A stretch of 64,000 bases of DNA from Candidatus Kuenenbacteria bacterium (lineage in GTDB: Bacteria; Patescibacteriota; Patescibacteriia; UBA11705; JABHMO01). The translations under genes and the position numbers were made by a program. The DNA lies in NCBI GenBank assembly GCA_013202715.1, contig JABMRF010000023.1:2327-66326 (forward strand). Reading direction: 5' to 3'. The number at the start of each line of letters is the position of its first letter. Within the stretch, counting starts at the first letter, position 1. Positions 3,302 through 53,600 of this stretch are shown piece after piece. Below the pieces are notes generated by a model that was not told the origin of the DNA, made no database searches, and saw nothing but the letters and a program-made list of their open reading frames with translations.

Positions 3302-4075
3302 TCACCCCACTTCAGTGGGCTACGCACGTTATTAAATACCACGAACAGCGATTAACCACGCGCCGGGTATCGTATCCGGTTAAAACCGGGCAAAATTTAT
3401 TTTATTTTTTCTACCTTTTCCATATCTGCCACAAACGCCTCCTCTGTTTCTAAATCAATATCCAGTGCAATCGTATTAAGAATCAAATTATCAATATATT
3501 CCAATCCATACCTCTTAACCAATTCTTGATAACTTGAAAATCCGTATTGATACAACTTTAACAAATTTTTTACTAAACCATGTTTGTACGGGTTTCCCAA
3601 TATATAACCCAAGACATTAAAAAATGATTTTTCTGTTAAAATTTGTTTTGCCCATCTTTCATTCCACATTCCTCTTCTTTCAAATCCTTGCTTTCGATTT
3701 AACAAAAACGTACTTCCTCCATTTACAATTTGTAAAAATTTTGGAACATCACGCCAATGAGAACTTTTAATTAATATATGATAATGATTAGATAAAATCA
3801 CATACCCATAAATTTTTATACCGAATTTCTTTTGAGCTTTTCTAATTTGCAACTTAATTATCTGTTTTGCGTAATCCTCAACAAAAAACTTGTAGGCTCC
3901 AATAGTCCTACAAGTTATAAAATAAATATTTCCCGTATAATACACGTACCCCATATAGACTAATTTTTATTTACCCCACTTCAGTGGGATACGCACGCCA
4001 CGCACGTTCTTAAATACCACGAACAGCGATTAACCACGCGCCGGGTATCGTATCCGGTTAAAACTGGGCAAAATT
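3302..4075 (-). mobile_element. IS200/IS605-like (RAYT-type) element: HUH transposase flanked by two ~95-bp structured direct repeats
   Basis: Near-identical copies of accccacttcagtggg(c/a)tacgcacg...ttaaataccacgaacagcgattaaccacgcgccgggtatcgtatccggttaaaac(c/t)gggcaaaattta lie at 3302-3395 and 3968-4075, bracketing the tnpA-like ORF. Confidence 0.7.
3397..3954 (-). CDS. tnpA: IS200-like / REP-associated tyrosine transposase (HUH Y1 transposase)
   Basis: HUH motif in YVILSNHYHILIKS, C-terminal Tyr-containing region, ~185 aa, consistent with IS200 TnpA/RAYT. Confidence 0.75.
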   Translation of the reverse strand: MGYVYYTGNIYFITCRTIGAYKFFVEDYAKQIIKLQIRKAQKKFGIKIYGYVILSNHYHILIKSSHWRDVPKFLQIVNGGSTFLLNRKQGFERRGMWNERWAKQILTEKSFFNVLGYILGNPYKHGLVKNLLKLYQYGFSSYQELVKRYGLEYIDNLILNTIALDIDLETEEAFVADMEKVEKIK

Positions 4076-4826: not shown

Positions 4827-5942
4827 TTAACTTTTTTTCTTTTTAACTTTAACTAAAAAGTGAGCAGCAATAACCGTCGCAATTGGCACTGCTAATATAA
4901 GCCCAATACTACCGGTCAAAGTTCGCACGATCTCTGTGGCAATAACCTCATTATTTAAAACCTGAGATAAACTTACGGAAGAATCAGACCTTGTACTAAA
5001 TAATAGCAACAATGGAAGTGATGCGCCAGCGTAGGCAAGAAACAGAGTATTGGTCATCGAACTGATATGATCCACGCCAACCTTGATCCCCCGCTTAAAA
5101 AGCTCGTAATGAGTGAGGTGATGACTGGCCAACTTAATTTGCTCAATCGTAGAAATCTGACTGATAACAACGTCATCCAAAACACCCAAAGTACCAATTA
5201 TTATTCCAGCTAGCAATAAGCCTTGAAAATTAATCGCAATTCCGCCAGCTCCAACCAAAAACATAGCATCATCCTGCGCTAAACCGGACAAGGCGGTTAG
5301 CTTTGTAAATATTATTGATAATATTCCGGTTATTACTAAACTTATCGCAATGCTCACAACCGCGATATGGGCTTTACGTTTGATTCCCCAAGTAATATAC
5401 ACAATTGCGCCCAAAATCGCAACTGACCCAATAATTGAAACCAAAAGCGGACTGTGCCCGGCCATAATCAAAGGAATTATAAACCACATTATTATTAAAA
5501 ATGTCACAACTAAGCTGATCAACGCTTTGACGCCCTTTCCTTTTCCAACAACGATAATCAAAACCGCAAAAAGCAAAGCCAAAAAATAAAGCCATCCGCG
5601 CCGAACATGATCTGTAACATAATACACCTCTTCTCCGTCTACATTAGTGGAGGCAGTTAGAACGACTTTGTCTCCTTTTTTAGCTGTAACGCTTTTGATG
5701 AGATCAAGGTCATTGATTCCCTCGTAAATAACCTCTTGATCTTCCCATCTCCCCTCTAATCCTATTAGCTTTAAGTTTTGTTGAACAAATTCTGAGCCAT
5801 CCTCACGAGTAACAATATTCTCGTCCATAATTTCAATAACTTTAGCTTCAAAAAGCTGATCTTGGACACTTACTCCCTGCGCAAACACAAAACTTGGCAG
5901 GATTAAACTTACCAAAAATATTAGAATGAATAGTTTTTTCAT
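4827..5942 (-). CDS. Polytopic membrane protein with signal peptide, YibE/F-like
   Basis: Signal peptide, a soluble N-terminal region, then ~8 TM helices. Resemblance to the YibE/F family is recalled, not verified. Confidence 0.45.
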   Translation of the reverse strand: MKKLFILIFLVSLILPSFVFAQGVSVQDQLFEAKVIEIMDENIVTREDGSEFVQQNLKLIGLEGRWEDQEVIYEGINDLDLIKSVTAKKGDKVVLTASTNVDGEEVYYVTDHVRRGWLYFLALLFAVLIIVVGKGKGVKALISLVVTFLIIMWFIIPLIMAGHSPLLVSIIGSVAILGAIVYITWGIKRKAHIAVVSIAISLVITGILSIIFTKLTALSGLAQDDAMFLVGAGGIAINFQGLLLAGIIIGTLGVLDDVVISQISTIEQIKLASHHLTHYELFKRGIKVGVDHISSMTNTLFLAYAGASLPLLLLFSTRSDSSVSLSQVLNNEVIATEIVRTLTGSIGLILAVPIATVIAAHFLVKVKKKKS

Positions 5943-7367: not shown

Positions 7368-8144
7368 ATGTTTTCCAGTCAGACAGCAAAAGAATTGCTT
7401 GGACAAGAAGCTTGGGAAGAGGGAAAGGTAATCCCACTCATGGAGGGTCCGTACCGCTACCGCATCATAGTGCATTGCTCCGTTCATGGAAGACAAAAGA
7501 CACAGTTTTCAAACGGAATGCAAAATTACTTTAGCTACATCGAGCTGCTGAACAATGCAGGCCAGTGGATTGAGTCGGGCGCAAACATGGTTCCTGTTTT
7601 GCCTGACGGGCGATTTATCATGGTTGTAGAACAGCGGCCCGCACAAAGTCGGTACAAAACTAACAAAAAGGCCTTGATTCAAGGTAAAACCATTGACCTA
7701 GACGTCTTCGGACCGCACAGCTCTCTGGAATTTCCCGGCGGAGCGGTTGATCCCGGTGAAGGCTTGAAAGCAGGATTTCTGCGTGAACTTCAAGAAGAAA
7801 CTGGAGTAAAAGAACAGACCGCTCTATGCTACCAGAGGATTGCCCCCTGCAATGGCTTTGGCTCAGAGCTTGCGCTCCATACACATTGGGGCGTCATCTA
7901 TCTGTCCGGGCTTAGGTTTGAGAGAGAAGTCGACACAGACGGAGGCCTGAGTGTCATGGCACTGACCAGAGGAGAAGTACAGGCCAACATCTGGAGTGGT
8001 GTTATCACTTCAGGGCAAGGTGGCCTCACTTGCTGGTCATTTTTACAGGAAGTTGAGCAAATCAAAGAAGATCCTGAATTGCAAAAGTATCTGATCGACA
8101 TTGGATATCTCTCGGTGGAAGAGCTTCAGCTAACCAACCTATAA
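7368..8144 (+). CDS. NUDIX hydrolase
   Basis: Nudix box PGGAVDPGEGLKAGFLRELQEETGV. SD ggagg. Terminator ccccctcatcacaggggg+T7 at 8152-8177. Confidence 0.8.
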   Translation: MFSSQTAKELLGQEAWEEGKVIPLMEGPYRYRIIVHCSVHGRQKTQFSNGMQNYFSYIELLNNAGQWIESGANMVPVLPDGRFIMVVEQRPAQSRYKTNKKALIQGKTIDLDVFGPHSSLEFPGGAVDPGEGLKAGFLRELQEETGVKEQTALCYQRIAPCNGFGSELALHTHWGVIYLSGLRFEREVDTDGGLSVMALTRGEVQANIWSGVITSGQGGLTCWSFLQEVEQIKEDPELQKYLIDIGYLSVEELQLTNL

Positions 8145-9839: not shown

Positions 9840-10382
9840 ATGTATAATGGCAGAGAACGAAAATTAAACCGTGCTAAATCTATTGATTATTCATTGCCGG
9901 GATTTTATTATTTAACGTTTTTAACAAAAAATCGGCTTGAATGGTTTGGAGAAATTAAAAACAACAAAATGGTTTTGAATGAATGGGGAAAAATTGTTTG
10001 CCGTCAATTATTATGGCTGGAACAACAATATGATCATGTGCGTTTGGATGAATGGATCATAATGCCAAATCATGTACATGTGATCGTCGAAATCCTTCAC
10101 GCATCGAACCCCACGCCTGTAAGGAACGGTCGCGACCGTTCCTTACAGGCGTGGGGAGACCGTGACCGTCGAGTACAGGAAAAAAAGAGAAAACCCATCC
10201 CCGAATTAATCGGTGCATTAAAAACCACATCATCCAAATGGATACATCGGAATGGTTTGTTTGAATTCAAATGGCATAAATCATATCATGACCGTGTCCT
10301 GCGCAGTCAATCCGAATTGGAACACGCTCGCTGGTATATTCGCACCAATCCTGGTCGCTGGCATCGCGACCGCAACAATTAA
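9840..10382 (+). CDS. tnpA: IS200-like / REP-associated tyrosine transposase (HUH), adjacent to tRNA-Gln
   Basis: HUH motif IIMPNHVHVIVEI and C-terminal WHKSYHDRVLR...WYIRTNPGRW, as in RAYT/IS200 TnpA. Contains an in-frame palindromic insert (see repeat 10112..10160). Confidence 0.8.
   Translation: MYNGRERKLNRAKSIDYSLPGFYYLTFLTKNRLEWFGEIKNNKMVLNEWGKIVCRQLLWLEQQYDHVRLDEWIIMPNHVHVIVEILHASNPTPVRNGRDRSLQAWGDRDRRVQEKKRKPIPELIGALKTTSSKWIHRNGLFEFKWHKSYHDRVLRSQSELEHARWYIRTNPGRWHRDRNN
10112..10160. repeat. REP-like 44-bp perfect palindrome embedded in-frame in the transposase gene
   Basis: ccacgcctgtaaggaacggtcgcgaccgttccttacaggcgtgg. A related copy, aggaacggtcacgaccgtcccct, lies at 30776-30808. Confidence 0.7.
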
Positions 10383-12713: not shown

Positions 12714-12902
12714 TTACTTAGCAGCAAAAAGATTGCAATGGCCTTCCGGCGGACAAGCGCCAAACGCTTCAAGAGCTGCTTCAAATGTTTTGTCTTCCGG
12801 AACGCAGGCAGTCTTGCCACCTTGCTCCTGAAACAATTTACAGTTCTTACATTGAGTTGCTTCATCCTTCCAACTGTCAACAAAATTTACATCATCAGAC
12901 AT
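12714..12902 (-). CDS. Small Cys-rich protein, possibly HiPIP-like iron-sulfur protein
   Basis: 62 aa. C17-x2-C20-x11-C32-...-C57 with CKNCKLFQ...GKTACVP...EGHCNLFAAK resembles the HiPIP pattern CxxCxF...C...GWCxxW. Recalled similarity only. Confidence 0.35.
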   Translation of the reverse strand: MSDDVNFVDSWKDEATQCKNCKLFQEQGGKTACVPEDKTFEAALEAFGACPPEGHCNLFAAK

Positions 12903-12974: not shown

Positions 12975-13190
12975 TTAATCTTTGGAAATTTTAGTTAAAA
13001 AATGATCAATGGCTTCGGCCTTGATAAGATTCAAACCCGTACCATCTTTTCTTTTAACAACGATCAGCTTGTCTCCTTTATCAATCCCCAACTCTCTTCG
13101 AAGATCAATCGGGATTGCAAGCTGACCCTTGTCAGTCAAAGTTACCATACCGTAAAATAATTTTTTTTTTGTACAAACACCTTTTTTCAT
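12975..13190 (-). CDS. AbrB/MazE/SpoVT-family DNA-binding protein
   Basis: VTLTDKGQLAIPIDLRRELGIDKGDKLIV is a swapped-hairpin AbrB-type motif. 71 aa. Confidence 0.65.
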   Translation of the reverse strand: MKKGVCTKKKLFYGMVTLTDKGQLAIPIDLRRELGIDKGDKLIVVKRKDGTGLNLIKAEAIDHFLTKISKD

Positions 13191-13271: not shown

Positions 13272-13300
13272 ATCTTACTACACTTTTCAAAATCTGTCAA
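13272..13300 (-). promoter_or_regulatory. Near-consensus promoter (TTGACA-17-TAAGAT) for the AbrB-like / Cys-rich protein pair
   Basis: Minus strand reads ggtcTTGACAgattttgaaaagtgtagTAAGAT. It shares the extended -35 context ggtcttgaca with the promoter at 17105-17133. Confidence 0.5.
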
Positions 13301-13426
13301 GACCCTGAGCGACGATAAGGAGTCGAAGAGCAAGTGTTTTCGAGCTTTTTGTCTAAATTAACAAGAATCAATCAAAAAACCCCGCCTCGAGCACTGTCGA
13401 GAGGCGAGGTTCTTTATATTTACTAA

Positions 13427-14416
13427 TTATTCTAAAGTTTTCAACACCGCCACCCTCTGCTCGTCAGTTAAACCAAGTGACTTTAACTTGTCATCCGCCT
13501 CTGCCTTTTCAATTTCTTGTAACTCTGCATAAACTCCTGCCACAGCCATAGTTTTATCCTGCAAAACTCTACCAAGTTTTCTCAATTCAACAGGAACTTC
13601 GACTTTCTTTTTAGCTTCCGGTTTTTCATAAACATACTCGTCGCCCTTCAAAACAATGCCCGCAGCTTGATCACCGCCTCTTCTTCCCTGGATCGCGCCA
13701 AGTAGTGCCGGCAATGCTTTTTCCAATTCATTCAAAGTAGCAATTTGTTTATCAGCTTTTTTCTTAATTTCTTGGACCTTTGGATCTTCCATGTCGCTGT
13801 CTTCATCGTAACCTGCGCCTTTATCCGCTCGATTCAACGCAAAAATCATGCGCATTTTTTCGATCAATTCATCATCACCAGGAATTCCCTCCGCCAGCGC
13901 GACAAATTTATCATAAGATTTTAATCCCTTACCTTTTGGTTCTTTTTCTTTCTCAAAATTGTTTACCAAATTCAGGGCTGCAACGTGCAGACCCGCCATC
14001 TTCGCTACAAAATCTATTTCTTCTAAACTTAATTCAAAATGTTTTGGCAAAAGCTCTCTCAGCATTCTCTCACTTTCTCCTTCATGCCCAACATACTGCC
14101 GTTTTTCCGCATCTTTTGGATGAACTTGCTGCCCTTCCGGCGAAGCCTTTCCAAGATCATGCGTTTTTCCGGCTAATATTAAAAGATTACGTTTTTTTTC
14201 CGGCAACCCAGCCACAAATTCATCTGACTCCAAGTTGCTGACCAGTTTTTTGGTATGATCATCCAAAGTTAATGAATGATAATCACTACGCTGGTCAAGT
14301 CCTTTCATGGCAGCTACTTCCGGAATTGCCGCTTCTAATTGTTCATAACTGGCATCTGCGCCAAATTTTTTGTCTTCAGGAGTTGGTGTGCCTCCCCCCA
14401 TCATTTTTTCTGACAT
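13427..14416 (-). CDS. HD-domain metal-dependent phosphohydrolase with N-terminal MSEKMMGGG-TPTPE motif
   Basis: Ordered H...HD...H...H...D motifs (YHSLTLDDH, KTHDLGK, VGHEGES, AGLH, LNRAD) resemble the CCA-enzyme-type HD domain. N-terminus MSEKMMGGGTPTPE. Confidence 0.5.
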   Translation of the reverse strand: MSEKMMGGGTPTPEDKKFGADASYEQLEAAIPEVAAMKGLDQRSDYHSLTLDDHTKKLVSNLESDEFVAGLPEKKRNLLILAGKTHDLGKASPEGQQVHPKDAEKRQYVGHEGESERMLRELLPKHFELSLEEIDFVAKMAGLHVAALNLVNNFEKEKEPKGKGLKSYDKFVALAEGIPGDDELIEKMRMIFALNRADKGAGYDEDSDMEDPKVQEIKKKADKQIATLNELEKALPALLGAIQGRRGGDQAAGIVLKGDEYVYEKPEAKKKVEVPVELRKLGRVLQDKTMAVAGVYAELQEIEKAEADDKLKSLGLTDEQRVAVLKTLE

Positions 14417-14430
14417 AAAATTATAATTAT

Positions 14431-15840
14431 TTATTTTTTAAAGTCTTCAAATACTTTTTTGAAGTCTTCTTCATTTAATAAAGAAGTTCTGGAAGCTGCA
14501 ATCAAAGAGCCGCCAGCCACTAACACTGTTGGATCTTTGGTAATAATATCATCTGCATCAACTTCACCTGAAGCAACTTTGTCATTTAGGCCAAAAAACG
14601 CTTCTCTATCCGCTTGCCCTTCCCAACCGTCAACCATTTTTTGTTCATCTTCAGTTTTTTCCGGCTTGGCAATAATCGCATCTCTTTTTTGTTTTTCCGC
14701 TTTTATTAAAGCTAGACAAATTGCGCTCAAATCCATAACATTGGCCATGTCAGGTGTAATCCCAATATCATAATTATCGCCAAATGCTCTGTCTTCACCC
14801 GCGTAAACCGCAACAACTGTGTCTGGGCTAACTCGGTTGTAAGCCATATTTGTAAAGACAAGCGGTTTTTTGCTGGAGCCAATCACAACATTCACCTCAA
14901 TATCATTTCCTTCTTTGTCTTTAATTATCATTTTCCCTTTTTCCGCCTTTTCAAACTCCTCTAAAAATTCTTCAAATGCTGCTTTTAAATTTTCCCGACC
15001 CTGACCAACCACTTCTTGCAATTCCGGAGACAACTCAAGTTTTGTAACATCAGTCGCTATATCAAAATTTGAATCTTTAATTTTTTCAGCATTGGCCGCA
15101 TTAATCAATTCAAAAATCATTTCATTACGCATGTTTTCATATTTTGCCTGAATTTCTTGAAGTTTTTTTACTCCCTCTGCGTTCAATCTCCCGTCTTCAC
15201 CTTTCATTTCCGGATTACCAAAAACTTCCTTACCAAGCTCTGCCCGGCCTCTGTCGCTAAGCAAACTTTTGATCGCGGAAGCCGTTCCCGGTAAACTGGA
15301 GGCATATTGTTCAGGATCAAGTCTGCTCAATCCATAATCTTCAATATTGGTAACTTTTGCCAGATCCTCAGCAATCACCGGCATTTCACCATTTTCAATT
15401 AAACTGCGGGTCAAATATGATGAAGCAATAGCGTCTAAATCACTCTCAAAATGAGTTTCAACTTTGGTAATGCTTTTTTCTTTAATTAACTGCAAAACCG
15501 CATCAGGATAATCAAAAACCATTTGAGTTGAACACTTTCTTGAATCAACTCCTTTGGCGCTAAAAAAAGCATCTATAGAATGGTGATCAATTGCACCGGC
15601 CAAGATACTTTCTTTATAAATATTATCAATGTCTTCCTGACTAAATTCTGTTTTATCTTTGTGTTTTTTCAAAAATTCTGTAAACACACCTGTGTCAGTA
15701 ATCAAAGACCCTTGCGCTAATTTTTCTTCAAGGTTAATTATAGCGCCCTTTGGCAAAGACGGTAGACACCCTTCATATTTTATAGGTGTAAATTCTTGTT
15801 TTTCCGGAGTTGGTCCGGCTCCCATCATTTTTTCTGACAT
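14431..15840 (-). CDS. Hypothetical protein, possible DHH/DHHA1-like phosphoesterase, with N-terminal MSEKMMGAGPTPE motif
   Basis: 469 aa. Its first 20 nt (ATGTCAGAAAAAATGATGGG) are identical to the 13427..14416 gene. Contains AIDHHSID, ESDLDAIASS and C-terminal VLVAGGSLIAAS (cf. DHHA1 GGGHxxAAG), but motif order is atypical. Confidence 0.45.
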   Translation of the reverse strand: MSEKMMGAGPTPEKQEFTPIKYEGCLPSLPKGAIINLEEKLAQGSLITDTGVFTEFLKKHKDKTEFSQEDIDNIYKESILAGAIDHHSIDAFFSAKGVDSRKCSTQMVFDYPDAVLQLIKEKSITKVETHFESDLDAIASSYLTRSLIENGEMPVIAEDLAKVTNIEDYGLSRLDPEQYASSLPGTASAIKSLLSDRGRAELGKEVFGNPEMKGEDGRLNAEGVKKLQEIQAKYENMRNEMIFELINAANAEKIKDSNFDIATDVTKLELSPELQEVVGQGRENLKAAFEEFLEEFEKAEKGKMIIKDKEGNDIEVNVVIGSSKKPLVFTNMAYNRVSPDTVVAVYAGEDRAFGDNYDIGITPDMANVMDLSAICLALIKAEKQKRDAIIAKPEKTEDEQKMVDGWEGQADREAFFGLNDKVASGEVDADDIITKDPTVLVAGGSLIAASRTSLLNEEDFKKVFEDFKK

Positions 15841-15878
15841 AAAATTTGTGTTATTTTTTGTAATTTATTACTTATATT

Positions 15879-16367
15879 TTATTCTTTCATCGCTAACATT
15901 TTAGTAAAAGCTCTTTTCATAGCTTTTTTAATTTCACCAGTACTAGTTAATCTAAACCCCCATCCATCATGACCGGTTGAATAACCTATTGTTTCACCAA
16001 AAAAACTGACTTCTCCTTCTTCATGATCATCATAATCTTCTGAAGACTTTGTTACGCTTCTGTTCAACAAAGAACTTGCATCAACTTTTACATTCATCTT
16101 CCGAGCTACCAAACTAAAAATACTTTCCAACTCATCCTCCAAGTGAAAACCCATACCAAAAGAACTACGCATTTCTTCAAATGCCTCCAATTCTTTATCT
16201 GCCCAATCAGCTATTTGGTCAATGTTTTTCACTGAAAACTCGACTTTATTGAATTCATCTTCATCTAAACATAAACCTAAATCATCATAGCTTTCTTCAG
16301 CTACTTCTTTTTCATGTTCATTCTCTACCTCCGGGCTTGGATCATTACCCATTGTAGGATCTTTCAT
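15879..16367 (-). CDS. Acidic hypothetical protein with N-terminal MKDPTMGNDPSPE motif
   Basis: 162 aa, pI-acidic, and shares the MG..[ST]PE N-terminal motif. 15-bp gap to the upstream gene, consistent with an operon. Confidence 0.45.
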   Translation of the reverse strand: MKDPTMGNDPSPEVENEHEKEVAEESYDDLGLCLDEDEFNKVEFSVKNIDQIADWADKELEAFEEMRSSFGMGFHLEDELESIFSLVARKMNVKVDASSLLNRSVTKSSEDYDDHEEGEVSFFGETIGYSTGHDGWGFRLTSTGEIKKAMKRAFTKMLAMKE

Positions 16368-16382
16368 AAATTTTAATTATTT

Positions 16383-16844
16383 TTATTCGTTTAATACTTT
16401 TTCCGCTTCTTGATTTTCATCTTCTAATCCTTTGATTCGTTTTTTTCTTTCTTCAATTCTACTTCGAATTAGCTCCATTGCTTTTTCCTTGCTTATAAAA
16501 GATACTTCTTTCTCGTCAACATCATAATTGGCTTCAACCTCTCTATATAGCCACAATTCATCAGATAACTTTTTTAATTCATCTACGTGATTATTCCCGC
16601 CGTCCCCAACGTCCAAAGAGGGAATATTGTCACAATCAAATTCAAAAAAATTGTCTAACTCATGAATTGCATCACTATCCTCTGCTGGAAATCGCCCCAT
16701 GTCGTCACTTGAAGGATATTTTCCATTGTTTCTTTTTAACATCTCATGAAAATCACGCTCCAATCCTCTGGCGCGACCAATTAGCTCTTTATTTTGTTCT
16801 TCCTCATTTGAAGAAGGTGTTTGGTTCCAATTTTCTACTGACAT
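16383..16844 (-). CDS. Acidic coiled-coil hypothetical protein, first gene of the four-gene operon
   Basis: 153 aa, D/E-rich. Lies immediately downstream of a long leader driven by the consensus promoter at 17105-17133. Confidence 0.45.
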   Translation of the reverse strand: MSVENWNQTPSSNEEEQNKELIGRARGLERDFHEMLKRNNGKYPSSDDMGRFPAEDSDAIHELDNFFEFDCDNIPSLDVGDGGNNHVDELKKLSDELWLYREVEANYDVDEKEVSFISKEKAMELIRSRIEERKKRIKGLEDENQEAEKVLNE

Positions 16845-16937
16845 AGATTTGTTTGTTAATTGTTAAGTATACCCCTATTCTACCATCTATTTAAAATAAA
16901 TGAAAAGCCCCTCTTTTTGTTGGACTCTTCACTCTTT

Positions 16938-17099
16938 GGAAGCTATGAATAACATAGTTTCTACTGCAATTCCCAAATTTTTACTGCAAATTGGTAAAAG
17001 CTTGTCAGCGTAATTTTATCATTATGCTTCCTCGCTTTTAACAATTTTCGTTTTAAAATTTGAAAATTTCGTTACGAAGCTATGTTATTCATATCTTCC
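16938..17099 (-). promoter_or_regulatory. 5' leader inverted repeat (20 bp, 1 mismatch, arms ~120 bp apart)
   Basis: ggaagctatgaataacatag (16938-16957) and its reverse complement within cgaagctatgttattcatatcttcc (17075-17099). The downstream arm sits at the predicted TSS. Confidence 0.45.
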
Positions 17100-17104
17100 T
17101 ATAC

Positions 17105-17133
17105 ATTATAGCAAACTTTTTAGATTTTGTCAA
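17105..17133 (-). promoter_or_regulatory. Perfect consensus sigma70 promoter (TTGACA-17-TATAAT) driving the 16844->13427 operon
   Basis: Minus strand reads ggtcTTGACAaaatctaaaaagtttgcTATAAT. The TSS is ~250 nt upstream of the first start codon, so the leader is long. Confidence 0.6.
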
Positions 17134-17288
17134 GACCTTGAGCCTGCCTGACAGCAGTCAGGCTTGTCGAAAGGTCAAGCTAATTTGATAAATTTTGACC
17201 TCTGGATAACCTCCTTTTATTTGAGATAGAATTATGATAAGATGTAGTTGTGTGATTTACTTGCAACTTTACAAAAAGGGAGGTCAAT

Positions 17289-17873
17289 ATGGATACTGAT
17301 TTCATTGATGGAATATCTGAGGAATTTGCAACAGCAATATACACAGAAATGAAGTTATCGTTGTTTGACGATATCGAACCAAAAACTGCTATTTGGCTTT
17401 TACAGCAATTCACGCGAAAAACCTATTCGCTGGACGAAACAATGATGATGGAAGGAGAGGTCGGCAATGAGCTCTTCATCCTTCTTTCCGGTGAGGCTGC
17501 TATCAAGGTGGGCGGAGACACCGTGCACAAGTTCAAAAAAGGAGCTATCATCGGTGAAAGTGGCTTAGCCAAAAAAACCGTTCGGCGTACCGCGACCGTC
17601 TTGGCTGGAAGCAGTAAAATTCAAGTCCTGGTACTTACACGAGAAAAACTTGATGACATCAAAATCGCAATGCCACTTATCTACGCAGAAATCTGCAGGA
17701 ACATTGCGGACATGACCATTGAAAAGCTGGGCTTTGCAAATGACACAATCCAGCGAAAAATTGAAGAAACAACCGTAGCGAAAAGAAAAACCGTAGAAGC
17801 AACAAGGGAACTTGAACACAGAAATTGGTTGAGTCGACTGGCTGCCACACTTGGCTTCAGTCAAGGACAATAG
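17289..17873 (+). CDS. Cyclic nucleotide-binding (CRP/FNR-like) protein
   Basis: cNMP-binding fold GEVGNELFILLSGEAAIKVGG...KKGAIIGESGL...RRTATVLA, plus a short C-terminal region that could be a degenerate HTH. SD agggagg. Terminator at 17888-17919. Confidence 0.65.
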   Translation: MDTDFIDGISEEFATAIYTEMKLSLFDDIEPKTAIWLLQQFTRKTYSLDETMMMEGEVGNELFILLSGEAAIKVGGDTVHKFKKGAIIGESGLAKKTVRRTATVLAGSSKIQVLVLTREKLDDIKIAMPLIYAEICRNIADMTIEKLGFANDTIQRKIEETTVAKRKTVEATRELEHRNWLSRLAATLGFSQGQ

Positions 17874-17944: not shown

Positions 17945-18008
17945 AACTAGTCAATAGTCTAGAGTCCGTTAGGTAACTTTTGACTTTTGACCCTAGACTC
18001 AAGACTAA
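17945..18008. repeat. Palindromic intergenic element (MITE-like family; modules agtctagagtc / gacttttgac)
   Basis: actagtcaatagtctagagtccgttaggtaacttttgacttttgaccctagactcaagact. Same family as 22603-22676, 36988-37060, 48925-48999 and 53565-53600. Confidence 0.7.
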
Positions 18009-19402: not shown

Positions 19403-20341
19403 TTATAATTCAACAGCTTCAACTTTCACACCCTTACCTTTATCGTATACAAACTTAACATTATATTTTTTTTCAGGGTCTGTGGTTGAAATTAATTTTC
19501 GGAGTTCATCCGCAACATTTAAACCATCCCTACTAATTCTAACTTCTTCAAACGCATAAGAAATACCTTTTAGCGCAGCCATAATGCCACCACCTCCTGA
19601 ATGATGTCTACTTATGTACTCAAAGTGATCTGGAATCGGTGGTAATTCAAATTTATTTGGATCAATTCTTTCCGGATTAATTCCACCAACCGCATCTTGC
19701 AAAGCAAAAAACGCTCGTCTTTCTTCAATAGTTTTTAATTCTCCAAACCCACCAACTTCTACTACCCCTTTATCAGAATATCTTTCAATTTTTACTTTCA
19801 TTCCATCAACTTCACCAATAGAGCCAATTTCTGGCACTTTTATTTTATCATCAGCTTTTAATCTTTTTAATTCTTTTCTAATCTTTTTTTCAACAAAACT
19901 CAAACAATGTTGCTGTAATTCATCATACGAATCATCTTCTCGACTAAGATATTGCTCACCATATTCTGGGCGCATCATTCGATAATAAGGATCATGAACT
20001 CCCTGGGCCACAAAGCCAGTTCCAGCCAAAGTCCAACGCTTTTCAATAGCATGTTTTATTCCTTCTAAGGCAAACAACATTCTAACATATAATTCTGGAT
20101 CATTTCTAGTTCCTTCCCAAACCTCCTTGCGTAAAGCTTGACGCGCTTGTTTTTCTGCTGGAGACAATGGCGCAATCCTGCCCAAAACTGCATCTTGCCA
20201 GGCAATTTCTAAAATATCATCAACATTAGAATCCGGATTTGTTAAGGCTGATTCGATCTCTTTATCATATCTTTGTTGCCAAGCTCCAGCGTTTTGTTTT
20301 AATTGTTCTGGAGAAAGGTCTCCCCCCATTTTTTCTTGCAT
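19403..20341 (-). CDS. Hypothetical protein with N-terminal MQEKMGGDLSPE motif
   Basis: The track ORF extends to 20428 and overlaps pyrG by 79 bp. Internal ATG at 20339-20341 gives MQEKMGGDLSPEQ..., matching the motif family at 13.4-16.4 kb, and leaves an 8-bp gap to pyrG. Confidence 0.5.
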   Translation of the reverse strand: MQEKMGGDLSPEQLKQNAGAWQQRYDKEIESALTNPDSNVDDILEIAWQDAVLGRIAPLSPAEKQARQALRKEVWEGTRNDPELYVRMLFALEGIKHAIEKRWTLAGTGFVAQGVHDPYYRMMRPEYGEQYLSREDDSYDELQQHCLSFVEKKIRKELKRLKADDKIKVPEIGSIGEVDGMKVKIERYSDKGVVEVGGFGELKTIEERRAFFALQDAVGGINPERIDPNKFELPPIPDHFEYISRHHSGGGGIMAALKGISYAFEEVRISRDGLNVADELRKLISTTDPEKKYNVKFVYDKGKGVKVEAVEL

Positions 20342-22602: not shown

Positions 22603-22676
22603 TAGTCTAGAGTCTTGAGTCAAAAGTCTAGAGTCAATTCACTACTTTTGACTTTTGACCATTGACTTTTGACTTT
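22603..22676. repeat. Palindromic intergenic element (MITE-like family)
   Basis: tagtctagagtcttgagtcaaaagtctagagtcaattcactacttttgacttttgaccattgacttttgac. Confidence 0.7.
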
Positions 22677-36987: not shown

Positions 36988-37060
36988 TAGTCAAAAGTTT
37001 TAAGTCAATAGTCTAGAGTTGCTTACAACTTTTGACTTTTGACTTTTGACTCTAGACTTG
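36988..37060. repeat. Palindromic intergenic element (MITE-like family)
   Basis: tagtcaaaagttttaagtcaatagtctagagttgcttacaacttttgacttttgacttttgactctagact. Confidence 0.7.
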
Positions 37061-41509: not shown

Positions 41510-43252
41510 CTAAACCTTCTCTGCATTCTCCTTTACCACCAACTCTACAAACTCTTCAGTCGGACGAGGACCAAGATCACCTTCCCCTCTTTTCCGAACC
41601 GCAACAGTTTTATCGGCAACTTCTTTTTCACCGACAACTAATATATATGGGATTTTGGTTTTTTCTCCGTTTCTAATTCGCTTTGGTAAAGATTCACTAT
41701 CATTATCAACATAAACACGCAACCCTTTAGCAACTAAATTCTCTTTTACTTCTTTTGCGTACTCATCAAATTTTTCTGATACCGGTAATATTCTAATTTG
41801 CTCTGGTGACAACCATACTGGAAATGCGCCACCATAATGCTCAATTAAAATTCCAGTAAATCTCTCAAAAGAACCAAAGATAGCAGCATGAATCATAGCT
41901 GGAGTTTGCGACTTACCGGTTTTATCAATATACTCAATACCAAACCGTCCTGCTAATTGAAAATCAAGCTGGATAGTAGCAACCTGCCAGGTACGACCGA
42001 AAACATCTTTCATATTAACATCTATTTTCGGGCCATAAAAAGCACCGTCCCCTTCCTTGATCCCATAAGTTTCAATACCTTCCTTTTCTAATGCTTTACG
42101 CAAATCAGATTCGGCTACATCCCAGGTTTTAGCTTCACCCATAAAATCATCTGGCCTGGTCGAAAGAAAAAATTCTGGTTCAAGATTAAAAACAGCATAA
42201 TACTCTTTTACCATACGAATAAGACTGGCAATTTCTTCTTCAACCTGGTCGTAAGTCATAAAAATATGCGCATCATCTTGTGTAATTCCTCTAACTCTAA
42301 ACAAACCATTTAATTCTCCTGATTTTTCATTACGGAATACTCGCCCGATTTCAGTATATCGCAAAGGCAACTCTCGATAAGAACGAGGCTTTGTCTTATA
42401 AATCAAAATATTAAACGGGCAATCCATTGGCTTCAAACAATAAGTCTGATCCTCTACATCAAATACAAACATATCATTTTTATAATGATCCCAGTGTCCT
42501 GAAGTAATCCACATATCATTCTTAGCCATCATTGGAGTTTGAATTTCGACGCTACCATATTTTTTACGTAATTCTTTTCCAAGCTTCTCTAATTCATTCC
42601 AAATGACCATACCTTTTGGATGCCAAAACACCATACCTGGAGATTCAGGGTGAAAAGAAAACAAATCCAACTCTTTACCTAATTTCCGATGATCTCTTTT
42701 TTCCGCTTCTTCAAGCATTTTAAAATAATCTTCAATTTCTTCTCTGGTTTCAAATGCCAGGCCGTAAATTCTCTGCAACATTTTATTTTTCTCATCGCCT
42801 CTCCAATACGCGCCGGCCACTTTTTGCAATTTAAAAGCGCCAACTTCTTTTGTTGAAGCAGTATGAGGGCCTCGACACATGTCCACAAAAACTTCCTTGC
42901 CTTCCTTATCAATGTTTTTGTAAAAACTGATTTCTTTTTCACCTTCTTTTTCAAGATCATCGATCATTTCTACCTTGTAAGGGTTATCAGCCACCAGCTT
43001 TTTTGCTTCTGCAATTGATAAACTGAACTGTTCAAACTTTTGATCTCTACCAACCAATTTCCGCATTTCTTTTTCAATCTTTTTTAGATCTGCTTTGGAA
43101 AATGATTCTTCTCCGAGATCAAAATCATAGTAAAAGCCATTTTCAATTGCCGGCCCGATTGCCAGCTTCACATTTGGGTAAAGCTTCAATACTGCCTGCG
43201 CCATTACGTGACTAAGTGAATGTCGCATTACTTCTAATTGTTCTTTGTCCAT
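41510..43252 (-). CDS. thrS: Threonyl-tRNA synthetase (lacks N-terminal TGS domain, keeps editing-domain HxxxH)
   Basis: MDKEQLEVMRHSLSHVMAQAV... class II aaRS core and anticodon-binding domain. 580 aa. Confidence 0.95.
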   Translation of the reverse strand: MDKEQLEVMRHSLSHVMAQAVLKLYPNVKLAIGPAIENGFYYDFDLGEESFSKADLKKIEKEMRKLVGRDQKFEQFSLSIAEAKKLVADNPYKVEMIDDLEKEGEKEISFYKNIDKEGKEVFVDMCRGPHTASTKEVGAFKLQKVAGAYWRGDEKNKMLQRIYGLAFETREEIEDYFKMLEEAEKRDHRKLGKELDLFSFHPESPGMVFWHPKGMVIWNELEKLGKELRKKYGSVEIQTPMMAKNDMWITSGHWDHYKNDMFVFDVEDQTYCLKPMDCPFNILIYKTKPRSYRELPLRYTEIGRVFRNEKSGELNGLFRVRGITQDDAHIFMTYDQVEEEIASLIRMVKEYYAVFNLEPEFFLSTRPDDFMGEAKTWDVAESDLRKALEKEGIETYGIKEGDGAFYGPKIDVNMKDVFGRTWQVATIQLDFQLAGRFGIEYIDKTGKSQTPAMIHAAIFGSFERFTGILIEHYGGAFPVWLSPEQIRILPVSEKFDEYAKEVKENLVAKGLRVYVDNDSESLPKRIRNGEKTKIPYILVVGEKEVADKTVAVRKRGEGDLGPRPTEEFVELVVKENAEKV

Positions 43253-43372: not shown

Positions 43373-43729
43373 TTAAATTGGCTCGGTGTGTTCAAGAAAA
43401 ATTCTTTTTTCAAAACCACCTCTAGTTTTTTTTCGCTTTTGCTTTATTTCATCAACTTCTTCTTGTGTGATGTCATTAGCTTTCATTATGGCCTCCAAAA
43501 CTTCTAATACATCTCCTATTTCCTTCATTCTCTCTTCTTTATCCTTGGCTCCTTGTACTTCATTTACTTCTTCAAGAAGTTTTATCAATAAAGCTTGTTT
43601 GTATTCTTCCTGTTCTAATATCCTCGTCTCTGCCATATGATCATCAGCTTCAATTATTTCAGGAATTTTATCCCGAACTAATTTTTTATAAACCTTTCTG
43701 TTTGGATTTTCTCCTTTGAATTCATGCAT
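43373..43729 (-). CDS. MazG-like / HisE-like nucleoside triphosphate pyrophosphohydrolase (small all-alpha NTP-PPase)
   Basis: KLVRDKIPEII...LEEVNEV...EIGDVLEVLEAIMKANDITQEEV...KRKKTRGGFEKRIFL. Confidence 0.6.
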   Translation of the reverse strand: MHEFKGENPNRKVYKKLVRDKIPEIIEADDHMAETRILEQEEYKQALLIKLLEEVNEVQGAKDKEERMKEIGDVLEVLEAIMKANDITQEEVDEIKQKRKKTRGGFEKRIFLEHTEPI

Positions 43730-48924: not shown

Positions 48925-48999
48925 TCAAGTCAAAAGTCTTGAGTCAATAGTCTAGAGTCGTCTCACAACTCTTGACTTTTGACTTTTGACTCTAGACTG
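48925..48999. repeat. Palindromic intergenic element (MITE-like family), overlaps the dnaE stop
   Basis: caagtcaaaagtcttgagtcaatagtctagagtcgtctcacaactcttgacttttgacttttgactctagactg, with a perfect inverted agtctagagtc/gactctagact. Confidence 0.75.
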
Positions 49000-53568: not shown

Positions 53569-53600
53569 CGACTTTTGACTCTAGACTCTAGACTATTCCA
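53565..53600. repeat. Half-copy of the MITE-like palindromic element
   Basis: ctttcgacttttgactctagactctagact. Confidence 0.5.

Follow-up and report, generated by a model that had tools for sequence, protein, structure and literature searches.

The four-gene operon described here encodes a putative HD phosphohydrolase, a distant DHH-like enzyme and two small acidic proteins, and three of these products, together with a fifth protein encoded outside the operon, begin with a common short peptide. Judged from its codon usage and distribution, this tag is selected at the protein level and is specific to the module, and it probably serves as an address or docking tag of an undescribed kind. The locus is best explained as a chromosomal module of nucleic-acid or nucleotide phosphoesterases, so far found almost only in CPR bacteria (Patescibacteria), and on sequence comparison its DHH-like and HD enzymes are shown to be functionally linked. 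The analysis covered 64 kb of this uncultured Kuenenbacteria genome (the window, meaning the whole stretch of DNA) and about 20 kb of each relative.

The operon (16844..13427, minus strand) is tightly packed, with gaps of 15, 38 and 14 nt between its genes, and is bounded by a promoter and an intrinsic terminator (Table 1). The original prediction had given the open reading frames and N-termini of g1 to g5 and an exact TTGACA-17-TATAAT promoter, and all were confirmed, with the five genes on the minus strand. This promoter architecture is also present upstream of the orthologous operons in three relatives (L004, L025 and L001), which keep the gene order pyrG, DUF6938 glycosyltransferase, cNMP-binding gene and operon. 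The divergent gene had been called CRP-like, a label which fits its cNMP-binding domain only, as no helix-turn-helix or DNA-binding domain was detected in this protein. The fifth gene, g5, starts 9 nt after pyrG. A Shine-Dalgarno sequence is present in 12 of 54 genes of this genome, its absence being the norm. An S41 peptidase located 6 kb away is a member of a housekeeping syntenic block.

Table 1. Features of the operon and its surroundings, with positions in the window.
Feature	Position	Strand	Basis or remark
Intrinsic terminator stem followed by T-run, closing the operon	13385..13402	-	Sequence
g4 (HD-A), 329-aa HD-superfamily phosphohydrolase	13427..14416	-	Sub-threshold profiles and invariant residues
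Tag of g4, MSEKMMGGGTPTPE	14375..14416	-	N-terminal motif
g3, 469 aa, distant DHH/DHHA1-like fold	14431..15840	-	Family-invariant residues
Tag of g3, MSEKMMGAGPTPE, residues 1-13	15802..15840	-	N-terminal motif, predicted disordered
g2, 162-aa acidic protein, pI 4.4, tiny family	15879..16367	-	ORF, homologue comparison
Tag of g2, MKDPTMGNDPSPE	16329..16367	-	N-terminal motif
g1, 153-aa acidic protein, pI 4.6, N-terminus MSVENWNQTPSS	16383..16844	-	Without tag motif
Leader stem-loop AGAGUGAAnAG..CUUUUCAU, then U-rich tract	16898..16934	-	Comparison of four species
Near-perfect palindromic hairpin, ~162 nt, inserted in 5' leader	16938..17099	-	Folding, arm comparison
Sigma-70-type promoter TTGACA-17-TATAAT	17105..17133	-	12/12 consensus match, TG extension
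cNMP-binding protein, 194 aa, divergent from operon	17289..17873	+	Pfam 3.3e-9
g5, 312 aa, uncharacterised family of about 230 aa	19403..20341	-	Tagged, outside operon
Tag of g5, MQEKMGGDLSPE	20306..20341	-	N-terminal motif

The HD signature noted earlier in one product is that of g4 and is supported by residues invariant across its family, HD-A (H54, H86-D87, H111 and H144), even though the Pfam HD match is sub-threshold (6e-4; 20.5 bits against a cut-off of 22) and the cas3_HD match (1.8e-7) is also under its cut-off. The best PDB relatives of the HD-A profile are the body of a class II tRNA nucleotidyltransferase (3wfo, 1.7e-6) and a Cas3 HD domain (3s4l, 4e-4). With both groups g4 shares the H...HD...H...H pattern, closed by a nearly invariant aspartate (D198), but it is instead a stand-alone protein with a C-terminal extension and the N-terminal tag, lacks a helicase, CRISPR array or nucleotidyltransferase head, and scores under the curated cut-offs. 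The DHH/DHHA1-like product that had been proposed is g3, a distant DHH-like protein by its family-invariant residues (D85-H86-H87, D90, H130, D134, D136, D168, D355 and D436). Its family (the 469 family) has been found so far almost only in CPR. Compared with DHH/DHHA1 phosphoesterases (NrnA/NrN nanoRNases, pAp phosphatase, RecJ and GdpP), g3, a putative enzyme, gave no Pfam or NCBIfam match at threshold and no Foldseek match; its 'DHH' triplet comes before the 'DxD', whereas canonically the two stand the other way round, and it differs by a large helical insertion.

Relatives of the module have as neighbours 2H-SAK phosphoesterases (Pfam PF22547), PolyA_pol/CCA-type nucleotidyltransferases and Methyltransf_32 proteins, and one protein (P0068) is a fusion of the 469 family with 2H-SAK. 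From this neighbourhood and from remote homology we infer that the module may carry out RNA-end-processing chemistry; since a cNMP-binding gene lies next to the operon, the enzyme folds would suit a role in cyclic-nucleotide turnover just as well. Burroughs and Aravind reportedly set out, in 2016, a modular RNA-repair 'syntax' of end-healing enzymes, nucleotidyltransferase and methylase. Distant relatives of the module match this syntax, in that 2H-SAK, CCA-type nucleotidyltransferases and large methyltransferases are found beside them or fused to them. Compared with 'Swiss-army-knife' RNA-repair systems, as cited in PMC7824862, none of the loci examined showed an RNA ligase (RtcB or ATP-grasp), and the enzymes of the window operon are HD and DHH-like only.

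The starts of g2, g3, g4 and g5 share the pattern M-x-[EKD]-[KP]-x(0,1)-M-G-[GAN]-x(1,3)-[ST]-P-E. A six-frame scan of the 64 kb for MG.{1,6}PE gave five matches, which were the four tagged N-termini and one in a non-coding frame (18270). When a looser expression was run on all ORFs of at least 80 aa in 615 kb (the window plus related CPR loci), it matched module proteins alone, namely the 469 family, HD-A, HD-B, g2 and one coiled-coil neighbour. In this sample the tag is confined to one module and is not carried by the roughly 55 other genes of the window. The original prediction is upheld in that the peptide shared by non-homologous proteins is real and non-random, and in that no described signal fits it. 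The tag is acidic, without a basic n-region or hydrophobic stretch, and is predicted to be intrinsically disordered: in the AlphaFold models the pLDDT of g3 is below 50 over residues 1-13, and that of g5 is 63 over residues 1-10.

Over 11 tags the invariant glycine is encoded by GGA, GGG, GGT and GGC and the invariant proline by CCA, CCT, CCG and CCC, so selection acts on the peptide. MMGAGP(T/N)PE is common to the DHH-like protein of the window and a Falkowbacteria HD protein with differing codons, and the HD-B tag keeps its amino acids between L001 and L004 with 7 synonymous differences in 16 codons. The identical first 20 nt reported for g3 and g4 extend a further 6 nt upstream (aattttATGTCAGAAAAAATGATGGG), giving 26 nt including 5' UTR, while g2 and g5 have the peptide in common and not the nucleotide string. 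Recent gene conversion adds to the similarity of g3 and g4 in the window, and the shared string may also have a role at the RNA level.

Homologues without the motif had been named as evidence against a tag; the literal motif is indeed limited to close relatives, being gone at ≤64% identity, but the phenomenon survives more generally, because the N-terminal peptides found in other lineages, though different, are again common to module proteins of one genome (EEDLLKAQQTMGVSPD, GFVPENE and RGxxPxQD). The core M-G-x(2-4)-P-E, with flanking Met and Phe, is that of Kuenenbacteria and Falkowbacteria, and the more general pattern is G-[FYVLM]-x(1-2)-P-[DE]. Examples are MTMEEDLLKAQQTQGVAPD on the 469 family and MSFEEDLLKAQQTMGVSPD on HD-B in L001, MSMENDLLRSQQTQGVAPD on HD-A in L027, SSFNPENE or ESGFVPES, RGFVPENE and GFHGNPE in L019/L034, and ERGHVPQQD on the 469 family with GRGAPPQD on HD-B (E 2e-30) in L038. 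Alignment scores of N-termini within loci (61, 78 and 37) were not reached by the between-locus null, and by the same scoring a shared peptide was undetectable in several distant loci. As compared across these sequences, the tag peptide shifts between lineages yet stays similar among the module proteins of one genome. L014 has a fusion of the 469 family with HD-B in which the G..P[DE] core is gone from the internal copy while the N-terminus of the fusion itself reads RYSPE, which is expected if the tag only brings separate proteins together. An N-terminal zinc ribbon or knuckle replaces the tag in L008, L012 and L034, so that the N-terminus looks like a place into which a small adaptor is fitted. 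Tagging is not obligatory for every component, since the tag is lacking from g1, a gene that L004 and L025 do not have in their orthologous operons, and from the g2 homologues of these two relatives.

Our tentative preference, held at somewhat less than even confidence, is that the tag is a co-evolving docking peptide which would recruit separately encoded enzymes to a common partner. It would act as a short linear motif on the parts of the module (the DHH-like g3, the HD phosphohydrolase g4 and the small acidic proteins), through which several different enzymes could dock at the same site of one partner or hub. The docked enzymes would assemble a multi-enzyme complex for RNA or nucleotide end processing, a 'Swiss-army knife in pieces', by analogy with the PIP-box and clamp-binding motifs that load different enzymes on one ring. 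Like the PIP box of PCNA partners, the beta-clamp motif and the SSB C-terminal tail, the tag is a short disordered terminal peptide with a few invariant residues on unrelated enzymes of one pathway, but its sequence is unrelated to all three and diverges between lineages much faster than the PIP and clamp motifs. Encapsulation peptides of bacterial microcompartments (BMC) and encapsulin cargo-loading peptides are likewise terminal and common to unrelated co-encoded enzymes; in its long form (EEDLLKAQQTMG) the tag could make a short amphipathic helix followed by a linker, like the BMC peptides, whereas the short form is too short for a helix, and no shell genes (BMC, EutN or encapsulin) were found among 29 window proteins searched with Pfam or in the gene calls of related loci.

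A signal for processing or turnover, either a short propeptide cut by a dedicated protease or a degron by which one protease or adaptor co-regulates the abundance of all module proteins, is unlikely but would suit a disordered peptide at the extreme N-terminus whose conserved core of small residues, G-[GAN], could be where a protease cuts. A need for a free N-terminus would likewise account for the decay of the internal copy in the L014 fusion, and the leader and promoter suggest tight regulation of the module. Against this, no peptidase occurs in or beside the operon in any lineage examined, and the strong lineage-specific co-variation of the tag is more in line with a private partner than with a general protease. 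To our knowledge the tag matches no ClpX N-motif, Prp site or double-glycine leader consensus. MSEKMMGG and MSEKMMGA do end in GG or GA at the cut position, as leaders for C39-peptidase ABC export do, but the leader would be 8 residues against about 15-25 and has no hydrophobic register of the LSxxELxxIxGG type, the residues are GN in g2 and GV in the long form, a C39 ABC transporter is absent nearby, and the tagged cargo consists of enzymes of 160-470 aa. Export was among the options offered originally; export, or localisation to the cell surface or a host-contact structure where an episymbiotic CPR cell would scavenge nucleotides, we consider improbable. CPR bacteria depend on scavenged nucleotides, sorting signals are classically recognised as one N-terminal peptide on unrelated proteins, and the failure of known signals to match makes a new route conceivable. 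However, the tag has neither the hydrophobic nor the basic region of such signals and is restricted to one module in the 615 kb scanned, the partner families (CCA-type nucleotidyltransferase, methyltransferase and zinc-knuckle 2H enzymes) are RNA enzymes of a typically cytoplasmic kind, and the operon contains no transporter, C39 peptidase, sortase or pilin-like feature.

The translational-control option is similarly disfavoured at the RNA level by the four-codon use of Gly and Pro and by a Shine-Dalgarno absence that is normal for this genome. In a related reading, which we consider rather unlikely, the similarity would reflect a successful translation-initiation region (5' UTR and first codons) copied between genes by gene conversion, with a functionless peptide. 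It draws on the 26 nt shared by g3 and g4 over UTR and start, a Falkowbacteria 468-aa gene with the same 5' end, two L001 genes whose long tags are nearly identical at synonymous sites over their first 9 codons, and the scarcity of Shine-Dalgarno sequences, which implies that early coding sequence may matter for initiation. Besides the codon evidence, the peptide of g2 and g5, which occurs without the string, and the synonymous divergence of the HD-B tags argue against copying, and the conserved codons (6-13 or 13-18) lie, in the long form, beyond the usual initiation footprint. That acidic, proline-rich N-terminal tails of low complexity resemble one another by chance is effectively refuted: P[DE] is moderately common in the tails of all three families (26-43% against 10% in control proteins), and tails evolve fast, most homologues lacking the literal motif, but between-locus pairs do not match the within-locus scores of 61 and 78, the expression hits none but module proteins in 615 kb, and the peptide is retained between species despite different codons.

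The long structured leader described at the outset is a palindromic insertion rather than a conserved regulatory leader. Its 20-bp inverted repeat is the base (24-nt arms, 92% complementary) of the ~162-nt hairpin, which is single-copy in the window, matches no Rfam family and looks like a MITE or palindromic element. RNA folding of 16845-17100 gave a dG of -76.7 kcal/mol (z = -9.6). The insertion is specific to this genome, being missing from the leaders of the three relatives examined (L004, L025 and L001). The parts of the leader region kept by relatives are the promoter and a short terminator-like hairpin, which in four species comes directly after the promoter; the three leaders folded singly gave z of about -4.3 to -4.9, and covariation is scant because the sequences are alike. 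This conserved stem-loop is similar to a terminator or attenuator, or to a hairpin that stabilises the 5' end.

Four minus-strand ORFs of the window (g1 to g4), which derives from an uncultured Candidatus Kuenenbacteria bacterium (CPR/Patescibacteria) with a G+C content of 38.8%, form one transcription unit with intergenic gaps of 15, 38 and 14 nt. The proteins encoded by g2, g3, g4 and the detached gene g5 begin with MKDPTMGNDPSPE, MSEKMMGAGPTPE, MSEKMMGGGTPTPE and MQEKMGGDLSPE, respectively, and g1 has a different start; g4 is 100% identical to NCBI HQ571_02960. The original prediction of a shared N-terminal motif was correct and far beyond chance, because four of the five matches to MG.{1,6}PE in a six-frame scan of the 64 kb are the N-termini of g2, g3, g4 and g5. 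This peptide, referred to here as the tag, is mobile, module-specific and disordered, and it covaries within a genome between proteins that have no other relationship. The consensus promoter predicted ahead of the operon was also confirmed.

Coordinates of the operon, its leader elements and the separate tagged gene (L004, L025 and L001 are related CPR loci)
Feature	Position	Strand	Description
g1	16383-16844	minus	ORF, untagged start
g2	15879-16367	minus	ORF; tagged
g3	14431-15840	minus	ORF; tagged
g4	13427-14416	minus	ORF; tagged
g5	19403-20341	minus	9 nt after pyrG, separate from operon; tagged
Promoter TTGACA-17-TATAAT, TG extension	17133-17105	minus	perfect match
Intrinsic terminator	13402-13385	minus	other end of the g1-g4 unit
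Conserved stem-loop and U-tract	window 16898-16934; L004 ~9935-9975; L025 ~7983-8020; L001 ~9933-9970		12-13-bp stem
Near-perfect palindromic hairpin, ~162 nt	16938-17099		between promoter and conserved stem; window genome alone, absent from L004, L025 and L001

The literal motif occurs in the closest relatives only, namely the Falkowbacteria locus L025 (MSEKMMGGSSAPE and MQSMKEPMMGAGPNPE), L004 (MTEPMMGAVSTPA) and the related proteins P0002 and P0003. Homologues at 64% identity or less are without it, which for the literal pattern is an outcome that the original note had named as refuting. The wider phenomenon holds in that shared peptides recur in other lineages, but their sequences differ from the literal motif. 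In L001 the DHH-like protein, a relative of g3, begins with MTMEEDLLKAQQTQGVAPD and a member of HD-B, the second HD family of these loci, with MSFEEDLLKAQQTMGVSPD; the corresponding pair in L038 begins with MPFSERGHVPQQD and MIETGRGAPPQD. HD-B starts with MSMENDLLKAQQNMGVSPD in L004, and HD-A, the family of g4, with MSMENDLLRSQQTQGVAPD in L027. L019 and L034 carry MSEYESSFNPENE or MHEQESGFVPES, MRDV(Q/R)GFVPENE and MSEYGFHGNPE, and L014 carries MNERYSPEQ and MENLGYNPEAG. Each tag variant has a narrow phyletic range; what the variants share is an N-terminal tail, acidic and disordered, that contains G-(hydrophobic or small)-x(1-3)-P-[DE]. When within- and between-locus comparisons of N-termini were set against each other, the scores for the window (61), L001 (78) and L019 (37) were above those of all between-locus pairs; all-against-all comparison within loci is dominated by signal peptides and is informative for the top pairs alone. 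The Kuenenbacteria-type core, [MQ]G[GAVNI].{1,4}P[DE] inside residues 1-28, was matched by module proteins alone among all ORFs of at least 80 aa in the 615 kb of window and loci. A degenerate DNA pattern of the long form of the tag recovered just two already-known organisms from metagenome contigs, and no new tagged families.

Selection on the tag is mainly at the peptide level, because the codons of its invariant residues are diverse (all four GGN codons for Gly and all four CCN codons for Pro in 11 tags from four genomes), g2 and g5 have the same peptide from a different nucleotide string, orthologous tags differ at synonymous sites but conserve their residues, and starts lacking a Shine-Dalgarno (SD) sequence are the norm here (one is recognisable in 12 of the 54 window genes of at least 100 aa). 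The 5' ends of g3 and g4 are nevertheless identical over 26 nt, 6 of them UTR, and some within-genome homogenisation has therefore occurred. This identity fits the idea that the tag is a copied translation-initiation region, but the codon diversity speaks against it and we consider it quite unlikely; if true, it would show how SD-poor genomes may equalise expression inside operons. The SD-like GGGGGGAGG within the g4 tag was ruled out as the driver of a later start, there being no in-frame start codon downstream. Several window genes (e.g. 4827-5942, 41510-43252 and 43373-43729) have a TATAAT-like box about 10 nt or less from the ATG, which suggests leaderless mRNAs. At the protein level the tag is predicted to be disordered: in AlphaFold models, residues 1-13 of g3 have pLDDT values below 50 against a mean of 93 for the whole model, and residues 1-10 of g5 average 63 against 92. 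Phosphorylation of an [ST]-P site was ruled out, as Ala or Asn replaces Ser/Thr in several tags (GVAPD, SAPE, PNPE) and the lack of an invariant Ser/Thr argues against such a site.

The tag is a real finding that is unexplained by any described signal. Sec, Tat and lipoprotein signal peptides have a basic n-region, a hydrophobic h-region of ~10-15 residues and a cleavage site or lipobox, whereas the tags lack any hydrophobic run and are acidic or polar, and the genuine signal peptides of the same loci look quite unlike them. Tagged proteins partly resemble the type IV prepilin leader (G, then F/M-T-L-x-E and a hydrophobic helix) in having a Gly followed 5-6 residues on by a Glu, but they have neither the hydrophobic helix nor an N_methyl match; the true N_methyl proteins of the window lie at 2480-2872. 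Double-glycine leaders of C39 ABC exporter substrates are 15-25 aa long with a hydrophobic register, end in GG, GA or GS and go with an adjacent C39-ABC transporter. In the tagged proteins at most 8 residues stand ahead of GG/GA, which is GN in g2 and GV in the long form, and no transporter is encoded in the operon or its neighbours. BMC and encapsulin shell families were found neither among the 29 window proteins scanned nor in the related loci. An export signal is very unlikely for an acidic tag without a hydrophobic core that is confined to one module and has no transporter at hand. The terminal position would also suit a shared degron or propeptide, an unlikely reading with no linked protease to support it, and chance resemblance is hardly conceivable. 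The best explanation, which we hold tentatively, is that the tag may be a short linear motif through which these proteins dock on one shared partner, and the lineage-specific drift of tags would reflect co-evolution with it. Terminal peptides shared for docking or targeting are already known in general, and the tag is a new form of them.

The tagged enzymes are new, distant members of already known superfamilies. g4 and 44 database relatives constitute one family within the HD superfamily, and the HD-domain signature (H...HD...D) claimed for one of the products was upheld by H54, H86-D87, H111 and H144, which are invariant in 35 family members including HD-B, and by the nearly invariant D198. 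The Pfam model PF01966 gave 20.5 bits with g4 (cut-off 22) and has a precomputed match on 17 homologues; the cas3_HD match was, like that of Pfam HD, below threshold. Among solved structures, those closest to this family come from a class II tRNA nucleotidyltransferase (body region, E 1.7e-6) and from Cas3 (HD domain, 4e-4). Searches of Pfam, NCBIfam, PADLOC and PHROGs returned weak HD/Cas3-HD matches for g4 alone and nothing for g1, g2, g3 or g5. g3 and its 49 relatives, the 469-aa family, are without a Pfam or NCBIfam model. Its description as DHH/DHHA1-like would suit the invariant Asp/His residues (D85-H86-H87, H130-x3-D134-x-D136, D168, D355 and D436), and a C-terminal VAGGSLIAAS is present, but Pfam DHH (PF01368) and DHHA1 did not match g3 at gathering score; the sole DHH-type match, to a fusion protein of L014, was weak at E 0.045 (14.5 bits, cut-off 28.1). 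The motif order also departs from the canonical I (DxD), II (D), III (DHH), IV (GGGH), in that the DHH triplet is ahead of DxD. Judged from these residues, the Asp/His clusters fit a metal-dependent phosphoesterase, though in non-canonical order, and g3 is labelled DHH-like, not a member of the DHH family. Foldseek gave no match for g3 in the PDB.

The remaining products are less widespread or less characterised. g1 (pI 4.6) and g2 (pI 4.4) are small, very acidic proteins with relatives undetected outside a few close genomes (three proteins came out of the g2 homologue search), and g1 is specific to the window genome. The family of g5 (~230 aa, 89 representatives) is uncharacterised, and no structural relative was found. 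The named sources of relatives are all CPR (Kuenen-, Falkow-, Peregrini-, Parcu-, Moran-, Uhr- and Magasanikbacteria), and a few MAG contigs are labelled otherwise. A prophage or mobile-element origin was ruled out, as no relatives were found in IMG/VR, PHROG matches were not meaningful and housekeeping synteny is kept (EPSP synthase, S41 peptidase, L9, pyrG).

The DHH-like and HD enzymes are one module, whose two uncharacterised phosphoesterase families lack Pfam models and comprise ~45-50 clusters each at 90% identity. In L001 and L004 the gene for HD-B (393/394 aa, 28% identity to g4) follows the DHH-like one, and in L014 (9881-12412) the two are naturally fused in an 843-aa protein whose linker, at the HD-B tag site, retains EKDELTAEQR, part of the long tag, the G..P[DE] core being gone. 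In more distant loci the DHH-like gene adjoins 2H-SAK phosphoesterases (L007, L008, L015, L034), several of which begin with a CCHC zinc knuckle, and in the protein P0068 the 469-aa family is fused to 2H-SAK. Further neighbours are PolyA_pol/CCA-type nucleotidyltransferases (L007, L032), Methyltransf_32 proteins of 770-810 aa (L032, L034, L038), HD_4, large coiled-coil proteins and proteins of 65-76 aa. Several 2H-SAK proteins, and also L008 and L012, have a zinc ribbon or knuckle instead of the tag in the N-terminal slot. Such starts, on 2H-SAK and some DHH-like proteins of distant lineages, were seen at L034 7457-8359, L008 7267-7959 and 8010-9458, L015 12306-13184 and L012 7640-9166, an example at the tag position being MSESACRVCGKEGHRTGEC with CX2CX4HX4C spacing. 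Another shared N-terminus is seen in L020 (10797-12923), where neighbouring module genes from two families (306 and 398 aa) both begin MSLEKP(S/L)Q, a start not found on the DHH-like protein of that locus.

Burroughs and Aravind reportedly set out in 2016 a gene 'syntax' of RNA end-healing and repair systems, in which a ligase, a nucleotidyltransferase, end-modifying enzymes and a scaffold are combined. The distant loci resemble it in co-encoding end-healing phosphoesterases, a nucleotidyltransferase and a methylase, whereas 2H-SAK, PolyA_pol and Methyltransf_32 are missing from the window's own operon and an RNA ligase (RtcB or ATP-grasp type) is missing among the called genes of all loci examined; the syntax is cited here via PMC7824862. 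It is possible, though doubtful, that CPR use undescribed private, fast-co-evolving N-terminal address peptides with a G-phi-x-P-[DE] core, by which DHH-like, HD, 2H and other separately encoded enzymes would be assembled on a common hub into a modular machine for the repair or processing of RNA ends, re-tooled by moving a tag of 15-20 residues to a new protein. Transfer of the tag onto g2 and g5 would seem to have re-tooled the machine in the window genome. If the docking or address peptide is true, it would reveal how an enzyme module that is little understood and almost confined to CPR is organised, and provide a clean natural case of a short linear motif co-evolving with its receptor and hopping between unrelated proteins. 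The majority of genes in CPR genomes are unannotated, and the tag of the local DHH-like protein would then be a sequence handle for further members.

Nucleotide-messenger turnover remains an alternative chemistry for the module, because the divergent cNMP-binding gene (17289-17873) is kept as operon neighbour in close relatives. The product of this gene had been called CRP-like; it has a cNMP_binding domain alone, and the C-terminal HTH expected of CRP/FNR proteins was not found in its ~70-aa C-terminus. The same neighbourhood of the window holds a class III nucleotide cyclase-like gene (3-1139, HNOBA match), which has a homologue with Guanylate_cyc in L025 (18339-19970). These genomes therefore have cNMP signalling, possibly tied to the phosphoesterase operon.

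The consensus promoter is kept in L004, L025 and L001, and in all four genomes AGAGUGAA(A)AG...CUUUUCAU and then a U-rich tract follow about 10 nt or less past it. The conserved 12-13-bp stem resembles an intrinsic terminator or 5' stabilising hairpin, and its role could be that of attenuator, 5' stabiliser or very short sRNA; across the four genomes its sequence conservation is high and covariation minimal. Two tRNAs alone reached the Rfam gathering score in the window, with nothing meaningful in 16700-17400 at E <= 10. What had been described as a long structured leader is a recent palindromic insertion and not a conserved riboregulator, because the large hairpin is found in the window alone. 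The window has one copy of this palindrome, possibly a MITE or an element mobilised by a Y1 transposase. IS200-like Y1 transposase genes (Pfam Y1_Tnp) are located at 3397-3954 and 9840-10382, and L025 has one Y1 transposase gene near its module copy.

A 15-mer that takes in the -35 box, CTCARGGTCTTGACA, has exactly two occurrences, one in the operon promoter (17128-17142) and one at 13295-13309 in the promoter of an AbrB/MazE-like gene (12975-13190) just past the operon terminator, which hints at co-regulation of the two. An intergenic sequence, GACTC[A/T]AGACT, has 11 occurrences with at most one mismatch against 0.63 expected, often in tandem (17956-18006, 22604-22635, 37048-37058, 48935-48998, 53577-53594). 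It is found just ahead of the starts of a glycosyltransferase gene, L9 and a gene for a 1171-aa product, and may serve in regulation or as part of the 5' UTR. A Cys-rich ORF of 62 aa (12714-12902; MSDDVNFVDSWKDEATQCKNCKLF...CVPE...CPPEGHC), with no Pfam match, is flanked by the AbrB-like gene and a gene for a 175-aa membrane protein.
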